This document shows positions 17,990 to 37,392 of a DNA stretch of 64,000 nt, piece after piece. Under the pieces are notes generated by a model. It did not search any database. It was not told the origin of the DNA and saw only the letters and a list, made by a program, of their open reading frames with translations. Position 1 is the first letter of the stretch. Each line of letters begins with the position of its first letter. The stretch is taken from assembly GCA_964414145.1 (NCBI GenBank), contig CAYPVH010000004.1:10849-74848 (forward strand), read 5' to 3'. Source of the DNA: an uncultured Gammaproteobacteria bacterium (lineage in GTDB: Bacteria; Patescibacteriota; Microgenomatia; UBA1406). The position numbers were made by a program, and so were the translations under genes.

Positions 17990-18656
17990 AAAACCTAGTA
18001 GGAATCTAGGAATTTGGGATATAGGAATTTAGGAATATAAGAATAAATTCCAATAACCAAATACCAATTTCCAAACAAATCACAAAATACAAAATACAAA
18101 CAATAACAGGAATATATGAATATAAGAATTTAAGAATATAAATAAAAGCACGAAATCCAAATATCGAAATCCGAAATAATATCAAATAATCAATATCAAA
18201 TTATAAAACAGAACTCATAATTCATAATTCATAATCCGTAATACGTAATAGATAAATAGACTATGTGTCATGTTGAATCGTCGATTGAGGCGATGAAACA
18301 TCCCATGGGATTCTTCGTTACTCTCAGAATGACATGTGGAAAAAAAATAGAAAAATTGCTCTATTGTTTCATTGCTTCATTGTTCCCGCCTCTAACGGCG
18401 GGTGAATAGAGTGTCATCTTGAGCGAATGCAAAAGTTCCCATAGGATTCTTCACTTGCGTTCAGGATGACGGATAAAATAACCAATGACCAATTACCAAT
18501 TGACCAGATAATTACCAATTTTCAATAATCAAGGTAACAAGTACGAATTGAATGCTTAAATTTTTGTTTTGTTTGTTGTTTGAAATTTGTTTGACCTCCG
18601 ATTCGGAGGGTTTGGAAATTGTTTTTTTGGATCTTGGGATTTTATTTACCATCTTA
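17990..18656. repeat. noncoding modular low-complexity repeat tract A (family 1)
   Basis: Contains modules shared with 20800-21440, 25310-25390, 37020-37331 and lepA 21671-21740. For example, a 43-nt identical block at 18166-18208 equals 21049-21091. Also holds two imperfect palindromic elements (18260-18350, 18411-18471). Confidence 0.85.
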
Positions 18657-20786: not shown

Positions 20787-20799
20787 CAATTTTTAAATT

Positions 20800-21440
20800 G
20801 CTAGAAAAAACAAATCACAAATACCAATTTCCAAACCTTCCGAATCGGAGTGCAAACAAATCACAAATACCAAAAAGCATACTTAAAAAAAATTGCTACA
20901 TTGCTAAATTGTTAAACTGCCAGAAGAAAATAACAAGATCCAAGTAACAATTTCCAAACAAGTTCCAACCAACAAAATACAAACAAAGATAAGAATATAC
21001 TTCATTATCAATAACCAATAACCAATTGACCAAGTAAATCCGAATATTGAAATCCGAAATAATATCAAATAATCAATATCAAATTATAAAAAAGTACTTA
21101 TAATTCATAATCCGTAATTCGTAATAGATAAATAGAAAAATTGTTCCATTGCTTCATTGTTCTAATTAAAGTACAAGAGTACTATAGTACAGAAGTACTT
21201 TAGTAATATCAGCTTTTTATTTATTAACTAAAAACTTTAAATTCTAAACTTTCAGTGATGGGATCCTTCTCCGCCAGATGGCGGATCAATTACCAATTGA
21301 CCAAATAATCTCGAATTATCAATGTCAAATATTAAGTTAACAATAACACTATAACACTTTTATACTACTACACTTTATTTATTCACTACTTTATCAATTT
21401 ACAAATTTACTAAGTTACCAGCTTACTAACTTACCAATTT
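20800..21440. repeat. noncoding modular low-complexity repeat tract B (family 1)
   Basis: Colinear with tract A: aaatccgaa.. module at 21036-21063, cataattc..cgtaatagataaatag at 21099-21135, and aaaaattg..cattgcttcattgttc at 21136-21163. Also carries the ccaattaccaattgaccaa module and the ccgaatcgg hairpin module (20837-20852). Confidence 0.85.
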
Positions 21441-21455
21441 AAGTTGGATTTATCG

Positions 21456-21461
21456 TATAAT
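21456..21461 (+). promoter_or_regulatory. TATAAT -10 box 6 nt upstream of the lepA ATG (candidate leaderless transcript)
   Basis: cgTATAATacctagATG. Confidence 0.35.
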
Positions 21462-21467
21462 ACCTAG

Positions 21468-23270
21468 ATGAAAGATAGCTTGATTCGCAATTTTGCCATA
21501 ATTGCCCACATTGATCATGGTAAGTCTACCCTTGCCGATAGATTAATGGAAATAACCGGTCTGGTAAAAAAGGGTGACCACGCCGAACAATTACTAGATA
21601 CCAACCCTATTTCACGTGAGCGAGGTATAACGATTAAACTGGCACCAGTAACTATGAAATACAAATTATCAAATCCGAATATCGAAATCCGAAACAACAA
21701 AAAATCGGAAATCCATAATTCGCAATCCGTAATTCGTAATCAAGATTCAGAATACATTCTGAATCTTGTTGATACTCCCGGACATGTTGATTTTTCGTAT
21801 GAGGTTGAAAGGACTTTAGCCTGTGTTGAAGGTGTAGTATTATTGGTAGACGCTACTCAAGGCATTCAGGCCCAAACAATTGCCCATGCTTATAAAGCTT
21901 TGGAAATGAATCTAAAGATAATACCGGTAATAAATAAAATTGACCGCCCCGAAGCTGAGGTAGAAAAATGTGTAGCCGAGCTTTCGGATTTTTTAGGGGT
22001 TGCAGAAAAAGAAGTTTATAAAATATCGGCAAAAACGGGCGCTGGGGTTGAAGAATTACTGAGGGGGGTAATTGAAAAAATTCCCGGGCCGTTAATAAAC
22101 CCGGACACTAACACGAAGGCGCTAATATTTGATTCGTATTACGACCCTCATAAAGGGGTTATTGCCTTTGTACGCGTATTTGATAACAAAATTGAAAAAG
22201 GTGACCAACTGGAACTATATGCTTCCAAAACCAAATTTGAATCACTAGACGTTGGCATATTTAAGCTAAACCTGGAAATTAAAAGTGAAATTGGTTCGGG
22301 GCAGATCGGCTACGTTGTGACCAATTTAAAACGAATTCATTTGGTTAGGGTTGGTGATACGATTATTAACAACAACAAAACTACTCCCCTGCCCGGTTAT
22401 AAAAAGATTAATCCGGTGGTTCATGCCCACATATTTACAACTGACGCTGCCGACTACCCAAACTTGGAAAAGTCTTTGGAAAAGCTATATTTAAACGACG
22501 CTTCACTTGAATTTGAACCAATCTATTCCCAAACATTAGGACCAGGATTAAGGGTAGGATTTTTAGGACTGCTACATGCCGACGTAGTTCGCGAAAGGTT
22601 GGAACGGGAATTTGGCCAAAGTTTGGTGTTAACCCCCTCAAGAGTAGATTTCAAGATTATTAACAATGAATACTGGGAACCATATGCCAAAGTTAATATT
22701 ATTACACCAACTACCGAGTTGAGCAATGTGTTGAAATTGTGCCAAAGTTACAGAGCGGTTTTATTGTCTACCAATAATGTTAGTTTGGGCAGTCAGGTAA
22801 TGCTTACATATGAATTCCCCATGTCGGAATTGATGAGTAATTTTTATGATAAGTTGAAAAGCGTTTCTTCCGGGTATGCTAGTTTGGATTGGGAGTACAT
22901 TGAGCACCGAAGGGTAAACGCAGAACGGTTGGAAATTATGATTAACAACGACGTTGTTGAAGAGTTTTCGGAAATAGTTGTAGCAGAACGCGCCGATACA
23001 AGGGCAAGGACCATTGTAGACAAGCTAAAAGAAATAATTCCCAGACAAATGTTTGAGGTTAGAATACAGGCCAGGTATAAAGGTAGAATTTTAGCCAGTA
23101 ACAGAGTTGCTCCTTTTAGAAAAGATGTAACGGCAAAGTTATATGGTGGTGACCGATCGCGTAAAGACAAGCTCTTGAAAAAACAAAAGAAGGGTAAAAA
23201 ATTAATGAAGCAGATTGGCAAGATAGAAATACCCAAGGAATCTTTTATAAAACTTTTCAAATCCAACTAA
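21468..23270 (+). CDS. lepA: elongation factor 4 (LepA) carrying a repeat-derived insertion in the G domain
   Basis: G1 AHIDHGKST, G2 RERGITIK, G3 DTPGHVDF, G4 NKID, and the C-terminal LepA-specific tail (KLLKKQKKGKKLMKQIGKIEIP). See findings for the insert at 21666-21745. Confidence 0.95.
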   Translation: MKDSLIRNFAIIAHIDHGKSTLADRLMEITGLVKKGDHAEQLLDTNPISRERGITIKLAPVTMKYKLSNPNIEIRNNKKSEIHNSQSVIRNQDSEYILNLVDTPGHVDFSYEVERTLACVEGVVLLVDATQGIQAQTIAHAYKALEMNLKIIPVINKIDRPEAEVEKCVAELSDFLGVAEKEVYKISAKTGAGVEELLRGVIEKIPGPLINPDTNTKALIFDSYYDPHKGVIAFVRVFDNKIEKGDQLELYASKTKFESLDVGIFKLNLEIKSEIGSGQIGYVVTNLKRIHLVRVGDTIINNNKTTPLPGYKKINPVVHAHIFTTDAADYPNLEKSLEKLYLNDASLEFEPIYSQTLGPGLRVGFLGLLHADVVRERLEREFGQSLVLTPSRVDFKIINNEYWEPYAKVNIITPTTELSNVLKLCQSYRAVLLSTNNVSLGSQVMLTYEFPMSELMSNFYDKLKSVSSGYASLDWEYIEHRRVNAERLEIMINNDVVEEFSEIVVAERADTRARTIVDKLKEIIPRQMFEVRIQARYKGRILASNRVAPFRKDVTAKLYGGDRSRKDKLLKKQKKGKKLMKQIGKIEIPKESFIKLFKSN

Positions 23271-25261: not shown

Positions 25262-25912
25262 GTTAAGAGTTAAGAGTTAAGAGTTAGGTGATAATTAAAA
25301 GAGAGATATATTCGAAATCCGAAATAATATAAGAGTGCCAAAACCCAAAAAACAATTTCCAAACAAATCACAAACTACAAAAAACAAACAAAGATAAGAA
25401 TTTTGGAATATAGGATAATTTAAAATTAAAAATCAAAAATTAAAAATTTGAAGTAAAAAGTAACAACTAAGAATTTAAGAATATAAGACAAGAGTTAGGA
25501 GAAAAGAGTTAAGATAAGGTGAAAATAAACAGAAATCAATTTTCTACTTTCTTTTTTCTATTACTAATCTCCAATTTCTAGAAACTAATTTCTATTTATT
25601 AACTATAACACCATAATACTTTAATATCTTCACACTTTACATACTGGATTGACTAATGTATTTTGTCTAATATATCTTGTCTATTGAATAATGTATATTG
25701 TCTATTGAATAGTGTATATTGTCTATTGAATAGTGAATATTGTATATTGATTATTGTCTCTTGTATTCTGGATATTGACTAATGGATTTTGTCTACTGGA
25801 TACTGGATAATTCATACTGACTAATGTATATTGTCTAATGTATATTGTCTAATGTATATTGTCTAATGTATATTGTCTAATGTCTACTGTATATTGTATA
25901 TTGACTAATGAA
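25259..25912. repeat. noncoding repeat tract C (7-mer, 21-mer and 14-mer tandem arrays plus family-1 fragments)
   Basis: gttaaga x3-4 at 25259-25288. The 21-mer tgtctattgaata(a/g)tg(t/a)atat x3 spans 25678-25740. The 14-mer ctaatgtatattgt has 4 perfect copies plus 1 degenerate copy at 25821-25890. Family-1 fragments lie at 25310-25390. Confidence 0.9.
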
Positions 25913-25914
25913 TT

Positions 25915-33092: not shown

Positions 33093-33099
33093 AGGTAAA

Positions 33100-33450
33100 T
33101 TGTTAAAATCAATATTTATTAGACAGTATCCAATAGACACTAGACAGTATCCAATAGACACTAGACATTATTCAAAATACATTATTCATTAAGCTATATA
33201 TAATATTAATAGGACAACATTCTTCACAATAGAAACAAAACAGAATCTAGATCAAAAAAGTATTTTGAATATTAATTATTAACATTTACTATTTTGTTTT
33301 TGTGACTTTTCTGCTTTACTTTACTATGTATTTAAGCCATTGGATATTGGATAATGAATGATAGATAATAATTGCTACTGTATCTTGTCCACTGAATTCT
33401 GTCTTTTTTAATACTGGATATTGTATAATGAATAATAGCTATTGATTATT
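33100..33450. repeat. noncoding repeat tract D (family 2, inverted relative to tract C)
   Basis: The 21-mer tagacagtatccaatagacac x2 (33120-33161) is the reverse complement of the tgtctattg(a/g)a.. units of tract C. Also ctggatattg/ggataatgaat words at 33340-33440. Confidence 0.8.
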
Positions 33451-33452
33451 AA

Positions 33453-36307: not shown

Positions 36308-36395
36308 GCCAGAGTGGCGGAATTGGCATACGCGCAGGACTTAAAATCCTGTGGCCCTTTGGGTCGTATGGGTTCGAGTCCCATCTCTGGCACCA
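36308..36395 (+). tRNA. tRNA-Leu (anticodon UAA), class II, CCA encoded
   Basis: GCCAGAG/CTCTGGC acceptor, CAGGA-CTTAAAA-TCCTG anticodon arm, a long variable arm, and ATGGG-TTCGAGT-CCCAT T arm. Confidence 0.9.
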
Positions 36396-36611
36396 GCCTT
36401 CGCTTAAGCTTCGGCCGGCAAGGCACGTTTATAGGTGGGATTAATTGAGTCTCGCCCCTCATAGTCCGTAGGACGACGTGGGGTCCCATCTCTGGCACCA
36501 GCCTTCGCTTAAGCTTCGGCCGGCAAGGCACGTTTATAGGTGGGATTAATTGAGTCTCGCCCCTCAAAGTCCACCGGTTGGCGGATGACGTGGGGTCCCA
36601 TCTCTGGCACA
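36396..36611 (+). repeat. two tandem ~105/110-nt units, each ending in a copy of the tRNA-Leu 3' end
   Basis: Unit 1 is 36396-36500 and unit 2 is 36501-36610. Their first 66 nt are identical. gtcccatctctggcacca occurs at 36378-36395 and 36483-36500, and its first 16 nt recur at 36595-36610. Confidence 0.9.
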
Positions 36612-36669: not shown

Positions 36670-36740
36670 CGGGATGTAGCTCAGATGGCTAGGCGGTCCG
36701 ACGTTATGTCGGACAGGTCGCTTTGCTTTCCCTTTTTTTC
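36670..36740 (+). pseudogene. tRNA-Pro-like 5' fragment / degenerate tRNA paralogue
   Basis: 26 nt identical to the tRNA-Pro 5' region including 3 nt of flank (36667-36692 = 36796-36821). A 7-bp hairpin follows (GTCCGAC-gttat-GTCGGAC), then AGGTCGC as in the variable/T-stem junction. There is no T arm, and a T-run lies at 36733-36739. Confidence 0.6.
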
Positions 36741-36875: not shown

Positions 36876-36992
36876 GTTCCAATCGCACAGTTTTCTAGAT
36901 AGATAGGATCCGTGCGAGTTCCCCGATACGCTTCGCTTTATCGGGACTAACTCAGAATAAACCTCACTTCGTATCGGTAACTCTGAGTTGAG

Positions 36993-37011
36993 CAAGTCTC
37001 GCCATCCCGAC
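36993..37011 (+). repeat. duplicated tRNA-Pro 3' end fragment
   Basis: caagtctcgccatcccgac at 36855-36873 (inside the tRNA) recurs at 36993-37011. Confidence 0.85.
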
Positions 37012-37019
37012 ACATAAAA

Positions 37020-37331
37020 AAATTCCAAATCTCAAATATCAATTTCCAAGCCCTCCGAATCGGAGGGCAAACAAATTACAAATACCAAAAAACAAATAAG
37101 AAGTAAATTTTTTCATGGCTAAGATACATGTCATGATGACAGGAGTGAATTATCAAGAATCAATTACCAATTGACCAATTAAGCAAATAAATCCGAAATC
37201 CGAATATCGAAACTCGAAACAATATCAAAGCACCAAAATCCAAAAAATTCACTTTGTCGGCCTGCTGGCGGACTTCGAGGGGCAGGTAAAATCAAAATAA
37301 ATTCCGAATAACAAACCTAGATACAAATACT
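37020..37331. repeat. noncoding modular repeat tract E (family 1), bracketed by a perfect 39-nt direct repeat
   Basis: Modules: caatttccaag-ccctccgaatcggaggg-caaacaaattacaaataccaaaaaa (37040-37091), caattaccaattgaccaa (37161-37178), and aaatccgaaatccgaatatcgaaa (37189-37212). The 39-nt repeat sits at 36912-36950 and 37332-37370. Confidence 0.85.
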
Positions 37332-37392
37332 GTGCGAGTTCCCCGATACGCTTCGCTTTATCGGGACTAATTCTGTCTTCTTGCTGAATTAA

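Follow-up and report, generated by a model that had tools for sequence, protein, structure and literature searches.

Long heptad-repeat tracts in a compact Patescibacteria genome carry sequences homologous to the arms of a four-helix-bundle gene cassette

We analysed a 64,000-nt stretch of bacterial DNA (contig CAYPVH010000004.1 of assembly GCA_964414145.1, positions 10,849 to 74,848 of the forward strand; hereafter the window, with coordinates given as positions within it) that contains long non-coding tracts made of 7-8-nt words. Homologues of its LepA protein place the host in the Patescibacteria, as a Microgenomates/Roizmanbacteria-like member. The nearest relative with a long contig, GCA_002305675.1 (hereafter the sister genome; LepA 67% identical, 53% GC), is syntenic with the window across the genes for an ABC transporter, Crp, pyruvate kinase, LepA, a Mur ligase, FolD, GyrA, PPase, GyrB, MgsA and RuvB. 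The GC content of the window is 26-44%, averaging about one third, against 53% in the sister genome, and most shared genes are 57-80% identical at the protein level. This is a very large compositional shift between related genomes of the Candidate Phyla Radiation (CPR).

The tracts, labelled A to E, and a related insertion within a gene are as follows.

17990..18656, no strand assigned: tract A, a mosaic of heptad and octad word arrays, recognized in the sequence and as arrays by Tandem Repeats Finder (TRF)
20787..21467, no strand assigned: tract B, the pyruvate kinase-lepA spacer, with modules 4, 3, 1, 2 and 5 followed by TTTACCAA-type arrays
21666..21749, plus strand: in-frame insertion in lepA of about 84 nt (28 amino acids), made of module 1 and a module-2-like array (nhmmer E = 2.4e-5)
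25262..25914, no strand assigned: tract C, with four copies of GAGTTAA, AATTAAA arrays and a 14/21-nt array at 25648-25910
33093..33452, no strand assigned: tract D, downstream of tRNA-Thr, a 21-nt array (TAGACAGTATCCAATAGACAC) that is the inverse of the tract C array
37010..37392, no strand assigned: tract E, downstream of tRNA-Pro, identified by repeat search, nhmmer and module 4 alignment

The original prediction had singled out the non-coding tracts as unusually long, and comparison with the sister genome bears this out. The pyruvate kinase-lepA spacer is 681 nt in the window (tract B) compared with 14 nt in the sister genome, the spacer before folD is 653 nt (tract C) compared with 0 nt, and the tRNA-Leu/tRNA-Pro region is 1312 nt compared with 203 nt; at the site of tract A, the spacer that follows the Crp-like gene in the sister genome is just 114 nt. 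Because the gene order matches and the spacers differ in this way, the tracts are lineage-specific additions to a conserved compact backbone and not assembly errors.

The words themselves are real repeats. The shared modules that had been predicted were found at their positions, and 103 14-mers occur in at least two tracts against a mean of 0.2 (maximum 4) in 200 dinucleotide-preserving shuffles, well above the expectation from base composition. The tracts also share 71 16-mers, compared with 0 in the shuffles, and size-matched coding segments share no 14-mers or 16-mers. The core of module 1 has five matches at three or fewer mismatches where 0.5 are expected, a number reached by 0 of 100 shuffles. 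The proposed 7-8-nt phasing is likewise present: identity at lag 7/8 is 0.38-0.58 in the tracts and 0.27-0.28 in coding DNA, and a sliding scan of the 64 kb at a stringent threshold found comparable 7/8-nt arrays nowhere outside the tracts.

Copying between loci can be traced in detail. The identical 43-mer reported for tracts A and B (18166-18208 = 21049-21091) lies inside a longer match, 18153-18248 with 21036-21131 (90% over 96 nt). Colinearity of the two tracts was put at about 120 nt; they are indeed colinear, although the match reaches about 18385 and is broken by an insertion of about 95 nt in tract A (18251-18345). One module of tract A is inverted, as described, since 18562-18643 matches 37018-37099 (78%) and 20814-20874 (82%) in inverse orientation. 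Repeat search of the window further aligned 20811-20907 with 37026-37122 (81% identity) and located module copies in 25312-25415. Five loci had been named as sharing modules. Five intergenic tracts do so, and a sixth copy lies in frame inside lepA; tract D, which was outside the tracts then noted, is part of the same phenomenon.

Module 1 (AAATCCGAATATCGAAATCCGAAA) is the terminal arm of an element that has near-identical ends in at least ten phyla. We scanned a species-representative genome collection (596 Gb) with the 24-mer AAATCCRAATATYGAAATCCGAAA and found at least 120 matching stretches, compared with about 0.02 expected at equal base frequencies. Among the matches listed, with phyla assigned by record title, the hosts are Patescibacteria (many CPR classes), Planctomycetota, Verrucomicrobiota (including Kiritimatiellia and Lentisphaerae), Desulfobacterota, Nitrospirota, Omnitrophota, WOR-3, Aminicenantes, Binatia and Gammaproteobacteria, and one host, Wenzhouxiangella sp. 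15190, is an isolate (L118). Host GC content ranges from 39 to 64%. Conservation covers AAATYCG, the seed and CAAAT, with a sharp left end. Ninety-three copies have the seed as the 5' arm of an imperfect, AT-rich hairpin that is 110-190 nt long in most cases and ends in ...TTCGRATTT. Of the flanking gene pairs, 53 are co-directional, 16 convergent and 14 divergent, which looks like unselected intergenic placement with no preference for promoters or terminators across phyla; some copies are found within ribosomal-protein operons, S8-L6 and S12-S7 among them.

No target-site duplication was seen at about 90 ends of the element in other genomes (AAATYCGAA...TTCGRATTT), the flanks of which share no direct repeat. 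Among 132 flanking open reading frames (ORFs), a limited sample, no transposase family is enriched, and the 25 most frequent families include no Y1 transposase of the REP-associated tyrosine transposase (RAYT) kind. A phage carrier is not obvious either: the 24-mer has only three matches in 2.9 million viral contigs, and scans of these contigs for modules 2, 3 and 4 gave counts close to chance as estimated from pattern length, with no computed control. One viral-contig match (L330) sits in a heptamer array resembling the short tandemly repeated repetitive (STRR) arrays of cyanobacteria. Separately, a Thermoguttaceae metagenome-assembled genome (MAG) has three tandem copies of an arm plus short spacer, 46 nt apart, before one hairpin (L073, 478-593), and arms can therefore amplify in tandem.

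In some genomes the element contains a gene. TIGR02436/PF05635 is the S23p or '23S rRNA IVS protein' (23S_rRNA_IVP) four-helix-bundle family, which is related to the Avd protein of diversity-generating retroelements; such Avd-like proteins are pentameric and bind nucleic acids. A Pfam scan of the 132 flanking ORFs put PF05635 among the top three families, with three members, tied with AAA_21 and DAO. A hidden Markov model (HMM) search of 120 element loci then gave seven four-helix-bundle ORFs; the two proteins scanned match TIGR02436 at E = 3.5e-18 and 3.7e-26, and PDB 2RLD is a relative. Six of the seven have an A-rich arm on one side and a T-rich arm on the other, and the order is invariably A-arm, ORF, T-arm. 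The full cassette is about 550-650 nt long and carries a gene for about 120 amino acids; its A-rich arm has four to five heptads (AAATYCG AAATCCG AATATCG AAATCCG AAAC AAAT...) and its T-rich arm is the inverse. The six arm-flanked proteins are 60-73% identical despite host names as different as Gemmataceae, Desulfobacterales and CPR Peribacteria.

An independent set of 80 metagenomic loci, picked by protein similarity alone, mostly has the same architecture. The A-arm is present upstream in 62 of the 80 and the T-arm downstream in 64, in 41 exactly 7 nt separate the end of the arm from the ATG (...CGAAACAAATTCAA-ATG), and in 44 of 75 the upstream and downstream regions pair with z < -3 relative to shuffles. 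Several ORF-less hairpins have ...CAAATGACCAAAAC as the sequence of the inner arm, resembling the last arm bases and the start of the ORF (N-termini such as MTK), as would be expected if these hairpins were internal deletion derivatives. Six of the metagenomic cassettes (L137, L154, L186, L187, L206 and L208) are flanked by leuC and leuD, as judged by terminal peptides. CGAAAT and CTAAAT versions of the heptads both occur at this site, a pattern that reflects either a hot spot or an insertion of old date passed on vertically.

Profiles of the arms, built from the metagenomic cassettes with the window left out, match exactly five copies in the window when run with nhmmer, with E from 6e-10 to 0.05.

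18145..18176, plus strand: solo arm of module 1 in tract A, CGAAAT dialect, core AATATCGAAATCCGAAA exact (E = 1.3e-3)
21030..21060, plus strand: solo arm of module 1 in tract B (E = 1.8e-3)
21671-21697, plus strand: arm within the lepA insertion
25305-25324, plus strand: short arm in tract C (E = 0.047)
37180-37227, plus strand: best-preserved arm, in tract E (E = 5.7e-10)

Module 1 of the window is thus homologous to the cassette arms. All five copies are solo, with no inverted partner, and no four-helix-bundle ORF or remnant was found in the 64 kb (hmmsearch; best tblastn E = 0.69). Since nothing remains of an ORF between arms, the window copies are ORF-less relics of the family and not full members.

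Arms of different cassettes are written in different heptad dialects. In about 10 of the 80 metagenomic loci CTAAAT replaces CGAAAT in all heptads of both arms, and the CTAAAT and ACAAAT versions both change the two arms together; four G positions of the arms form G-C pairs in 28-33 loci and T-A pairs in 5-7. The switch occurred more than once. Proteins and arm dialects co-cluster only partially, with 5 of 10 CTAAAT cassettes having a nearest neighbour of the same dialect. ACAAAT/ATTTGT words resembling module 4 of the window occur in two of the loci, L193 and L209, the resemblance showing also in L001, and a more distant four-helix-bundle gene (L097) has TCAATGG-type heptads on its flanks. 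Plasmid-borne relatives of the gene are overwhelmingly from Nostoc and Anabaena. On plasmid pNPUN02 of Nostoc punctiforme the gene stands between (AATTCGC)x4 upstream and the inverted (GCGAATT)x4 downstream, arms that are STRR-type heptamers. Inverted, lineage-specific heptad arrays around this gene family therefore look like a general pattern, which makes the many vocabularies of the window intelligible. On two further plasmids, Anabaena cylindrica pANACY.01 (L336) and one of Nostoc sp. TCL26-01 (L337), the gene lies between cas2 and cas1 on the opposite strand and has (AGTAAAA)n arms.

The copy in lepA shows that a coding region can tolerate the repeat. The LepA loop between ITIK and DTPGH has 53 residues in the window and 25 in the closest relatives; the 28 extra residues (LSNPNIEIRNNKKSEIHNSQSVIRNQDS) are the translation of module 1 and the module-2-like array, with the frame kept, and blastp against the sister genome gave 32 gap positions, in LepA only. 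Many of 120 LepA relatives have other inserts in the same loop and many close relatives have none. Several of these inserts read as translated hairpins (for example ...EIRNPKQIQ...FEFRASSF). In two relatives (L123 and L125) the DNA of the insert is a complete hairpin of the module-1 element family, and the arm profile matches both arms in L123 (E = 5e-9 and 1e-6); in another relative (L126) the loop contains a GTCATCCCCG...CGGGAATGAC hairpin that is unrelated. The window copy is not palindromic. A further relative (L124, P0101) has a short in-frame element of the module-1 family at a second site of lepA (positions 3540-3601 of L124), in the linker between the G domain and domain II, with the peptide NSKSEARNSRQILNSNFGIS.

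Directly 3' of the window insertion is a separate palindrome.

21738-21765, within lepA: palindrome with 12-13-bp arms, encoding NSEYILN

The same palindrome is present in L123, L124 and L125, where it encodes (N/D)SEY(I/T)LN(L), and it occurs with and without the element. Two compensatory changes in the four sequences preserve its pairing. Conserved host coding sequence has its reverse complement in the left half of the palindrome, and the two co-vary; the palindrome may have arisen as an inverted duplication from a template or may serve as a target for insertion.

The remaining parts of the tracts show further layers of insertion.

18178..18250, plus strand: inner words and module 2 of tract A (AATATCA, TCATAAT and CGTAAT arrays; period 7, up to 100% matches), colinear with tract B
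18251..18345, no strand assigned: nested GTCAT...ATGAC hairpin of a distinct class, about 95 nt, in tract A and not in the colinear part of tract B, with AATAG at both ends
18562..18643, minus strand: inverted copy of module 4 (CAATTTCCAAAC / AAATCACAAA words), found as inverted-repeat pairs, with a mini-hairpin at 18594-18614
20832..20852, plus strand: 21-nt mini-hairpin insertion (CAAACCTTCCGAATCGGAGTG) in module 4 of tract B, followed by a second CAAAC, from the module 4 alignment
25338-25415: empty copy of module 4 in tract C, from the repeat search
37047-37067: mini-hairpin in module 4 of tract E
37161-37181: module 3 of tract E

Module 4 has six copies, filled at 20832, 37047 and 18594-18614 (minus) and empty at 18068, 25355 and 20951; the 21-nt insertion of the filled copies consists of a CCTCCGAATCGGAGG hairpin and a CAAAC duplication. 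The boundaries of the 95-nt insertion in tract A rest on repeat-search blocks, the MAFFT alignment of tracts A and B having placed the gap uncleanly. A second copy of its hairpin class at 18409-18476 has a 14-bp stem. The class can also be described as hairpins of about 70 nt at 18262-18340 and 18409-18476, with GTCAT...TGAGCG / CGTTCAGGATGAC-type stems, and hairpins related to it are in-frame LepA-loop inserts in other CPR (...HPELVSGS..., ...VIPVKTGIH...RLRGND...). Given these modules, arms and insertions, the tracts are layered, with multi-dialect heptad arrays, pan-bacterial solo arms and smaller nested hairpins. They are not the single repeat family first proposed, being instead a mosaic of several heptad dialects and at least two unrelated hairpin classes.

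Folding, assessed against mononucleotide shuffles, gives a signal in tract A. The A-rich left part of tract A (18139-18214) can pair with its T-rich right part (18566-18648), and the tract has a minimum free energy of -155 compared with -120 for shuffles (z = -4.8) and long-range stems; the end-to-end fold uses non-cognate words. Tract B has no significant overall signal (z = -1.8), tract C has none, and tract D is not significant overall (z = -0.7). The ends of tract D can pair, and the tract is 72% complementary to 25629-25729 over 101 nt.

Of the origins first suggested, decayed mobile DNA is the one supported by the absence of the tracts from the sister genome, the copying in both orientations, the nesting of hairpins, the copy in lepA and the arm homology. 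We consider it probable that the tracts are accreted selfish non-coding repeat DNA, relics of intervening sequence (IVS)-like cassettes, gained after the split from the nearest sequenced relative. Module 1 is the terminal arm of a cassette family that we call heptad-arm elements, the full form of which comprises an A-rich arm, a four-helix-bundle gene and an inverted T-rich arm. In the much commoner form, which would derive from the full cassette by internal deletion, the gene is missing and the two arms make up the imperfect hairpin of 110-190 nt. The other modules of the window would be arms of the same kind as module 1, selfish rather than useful, and the arrays would have arisen by local multiplication through slippage, shuffling by recombination and invasion by smaller hairpins. 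Insertions would persist where they are tolerated, that is, in spacers, after tRNAs and, if their length is a multiple of three, in the surface loop of LepA. The lack of a target duplication or transposase, the periodic mismatches of the arms, the concerted switch of dialect and the constant spacing between arm and ATG hint that the words are read by a protein, and we speculate that the four-helix-bundle protein might recognize heptad arrays.

Several observations weigh against this interpretation. The window contains no four-helix-bundle gene or remnant of one, and arm homology is the one link of its tracts to the cassette. The five module-1 copies are all solo on one strand, a bias that this interpretation does not explain. 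For the large element, neither a target-site duplication nor a transposase was seen at the ends and in the flanking ORFs examined. Some cassettes occupy the same locus (leuC-leuD; an ABC-transporter pair) in several metagenomic lineages, which fits vertical inheritance and so could mean function. Pairing at the three variable positions of a heptad reaches only 36-50%, and the periodic mismatches of the arms suit words bound by a protein no less well than a simple RNA stem. In about 1 Mb of fetched loci, modules 2, 3 and 5 are all but missing, and so are the TAGGAAT and TGTCTAAT arrays; module 1 is the one module that is statistically homologous to arms, and 'dialect' is used of the others by analogy.

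Among the alternatives, the one that survives best, although we judge it unlikely, is that local slippage, together with template switching, made the tracts in a reduced, AT-rich genome poor in repair, with the likeness between loci coming from occasional gene conversion. The tandem runs of two to five near-identical words, drifting gradually along an array, are consistent with it, as are the GC content of about 33% compared with 53% in the sister genome and the lepA palindrome, the left half of which, complementary to and co-varying with host coding sequence, resembles a templated inverted copy. Slippage leaves unexplained the 24-35-nt identity to elements in at least ten phyla, the matches to a profile trained on unrelated metagenomes and the identical 43-mer at loci 2.9 kb apart. 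It has probably added to the growth of the arrays and does not explain their origin.

That the syntenic sister genome has the same genes without the tracts also bears on a second alternative, in which they would be functional DNA-binding arrays (bound by a nucleoid protein, by the neighbouring Crp-like regulator or by the four-helix-bundle protein itself) kept for chromosome organization or for regulation of the flanking housekeeping genes. Module order and orientation vary among the tracts, nested hairpins interrupt copies, one copy is within the coding region of lepA and, across phyla, neither divergent (promoter) nor convergent spacers are preferred. The regular 7-8-nt words are in phase, however, and the heptads combine a poorly paired variable core with a conserved CGAAA part, as expected of words recognized by a protein; the dialect switches in both arms together and the retention of some cassettes at one locus across several lineages point the same way. 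On balance the tracts are probably not a dedicated binding array, and we regard this alternative as quite improbable.

A role as structured or protein-sponging non-coding RNAs, either GGA-rich decoys from the T-rich strand or RNase III-processed stems that tune mRNA stability, would be suggested by the long stems of tract A and of canonical elements, by the RNase III substrate stems of IVSs with the same architecture (PMC4990558) and by the elements within operons such as S8-L6 and S12-S7. At the Rfam gathering score, only tRNAs were found in the window and in 16 element-carrying loci; tracts B and C have no fold signal, the module-1 copies of the window have no partner arm, and arm pairing is periodic and imperfect, all of which makes this role a poor candidate. 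Assembly artefacts, such as collapsed or chimeric reads, might be suspected for low-complexity repeats in a MAG and would have undone the original prediction, but they are scarcely credible given that gene order over every tract is the same as in the sister genome, that the lepA copy is in frame and the same 600-amino-acid protein is in the NCBI record, and that long-read MAGs with contigs of Mb scale, as well as an isolate genome, contain the element too.

The known kinds of element to be compared with the tracts are IVS elements, STRRs with their small dispersed repeats, in-frame repeats like those of Rickettsia, and transposable elements of the miniature inverted-repeat type (MITEs) together with REPINs. 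S23p-bearing IVSs of 23S rRNA have a stem-around-gene architecture with stems that are RNase III substrates (PMC4990558, Coxiella), and S23p-family genes also occur inside CPR rRNA insertions (PMC11270868). Full-length relatives of module 1 are like the rRNA IVSs of Leptospira, Coxiella, Brucella and CPR in having an inverted-repeat stem around a gene for about 120 amino acids from the same Pfam/TIGRFAM family, in being sporadic and AT-rich relative to the host, which suggests horizontal spread, and in having short ORF-less forms. They differ in that the copies here are in spacers, operons and a protein-coding gene, with no rRNA gene in the window, and in that heptad words in arrays make up the arms, the ends of which are almost identical from phylum to phylum. 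The searchable part of the literature on IVSs, S23p and the four-helix bundle yielded nothing on heptad arms outside rRNA.

Cyanobacterial STRR heptamers and the 21-27-nt 'small dispersed repeats' (SDR) nested in them were reportedly described by Mazel et al. 1990 and Elhai et al. 2008. The tracts share with them heptamers repeated in tandem in non-coding DNA, hairpins of about 21-27 nt nested among these, many heptads per genome, and tiny GC-rich hairpins within arrays (here 21 nt plus the CAAAC duplication), and the STRR-type heptamers of pNPUN02 are themselves the inverted arms of a four-helix-bundle gene. The heptads differ, and the host is a CPR bacterium, Microgenomates-like by LepA, whereas STRRs are described as restricted to heterocystous cyanobacteria. 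To our knowledge the link between STRRs and the four-helix-bundle gene has not been stated before.

Rickettsia palindromic elements (RPEs), reportedly described by Ogata et al. 2000, are inserted in frame in protein-coding genes at tolerated surface positions and also in spacers. The 28-residue LepA insert, in a β-hairpin loop, with a second LepA site in relatives, behaves in the same way. It differs in its unrelated sequence and host clade, and the window copy in lepA is not palindromic; we know of no gene associated with RPEs.

MITEs, repetitive extragenic palindromes (REPs), REPINs and bacterial interspersed mosaic elements (BIMEs) are also short, non-coding, hairpin-forming and multicopy, with conserved ends and a variable centre, and occur in operons and as motif mosaics (REPINs, PMC3116915; MITE review, PMC10969869). 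The element differs from MITEs in having no visible target-site duplication, the CAAAC duplication belonging to the 21-nt mini-hairpin only, and in having a longer form that encodes a four-helix-bundle protein with no transposase family enriched around it; the absence of RAYT from the 25 most frequent flanking families separates it from REPs and REPINs. We know of no conservation of ends across phyla in REP-RAYT pairs.

A broader proposal, which we put forward tentatively and hold to be doubtful as it stands, is that inverted arrays of lineage-specific heptads with a small pentameric four-helix-bundle protein constitute one pan-bacterial class of selfish cassette that had gone unrecognized. 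The protein would bind its cognate heptad array, as DNA or as RNA, and promote copying or retention, and the ORF-less hairpins would be its non-autonomous offspring, which would unify rRNA IVSs, STRRs, the in-frame and rRNA insertions of CPR bacteria and the tracts described here. In a literature that is incompletely searchable we found no paper with the DNA words or translated peptides of the element, and no account of a heptad-arm cassette outside rRNA with near-identical ends across phyla, of ORF-less hairpin progeny, of in-frame copies in CPR LepA or of the connection with STRR-type arms in Nostoc. How rRNA IVSs arose and spread, and what the cyanobacterial heptamers mean, are questions that have stood since 1990. 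TIGR02436 proteins are abundant, and we know of no role for them outside diversity-generating retroelements. An arm sequence in at least ten phyla, the constant arm-gene-arm layout, the cognate dialects and the ORF-less derivatives provide a handle that ties the IVS, STRR and TIGR02436 questions together. The elements also inflate the spacers of compact CPR genomes, add low-complexity peptides to essential proteins such as LepA, generate spurious ORFs and are likely to break short-read assemblies.

Smaller features lie next to the tracts. FolD apparently has a C-terminal extension of 13 amino acids relative to the sister genome (25915-25955, the 3' end of folD, minus strand), directed towards tract C, and the extension may be encoded by repeat-derived sequence. 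Two 105-nt units in tandem come after tRNA-Leu(taa) (36308-36610), each ending in a copy of the last 17 or so nucleotides of the tRNA (GTCCCATCTCTGGCAC; TRF period 105, 98% matches); the sister genome has none, and the arrangement looks as if a tiny element had integrated repeatedly at the 3' end of the tRNA. Upstream of tRNA-Pro(tgg) is a partial 5' copy of it (36670-36700), its 3' end is duplicated at 36993-37011, and a 42-nt hairpin-bearing repeat (GTGCGAGTTCCCCGATACGCTTCGCTTTATCGGGACTAA) flanks tract E at 36912 and 37332.

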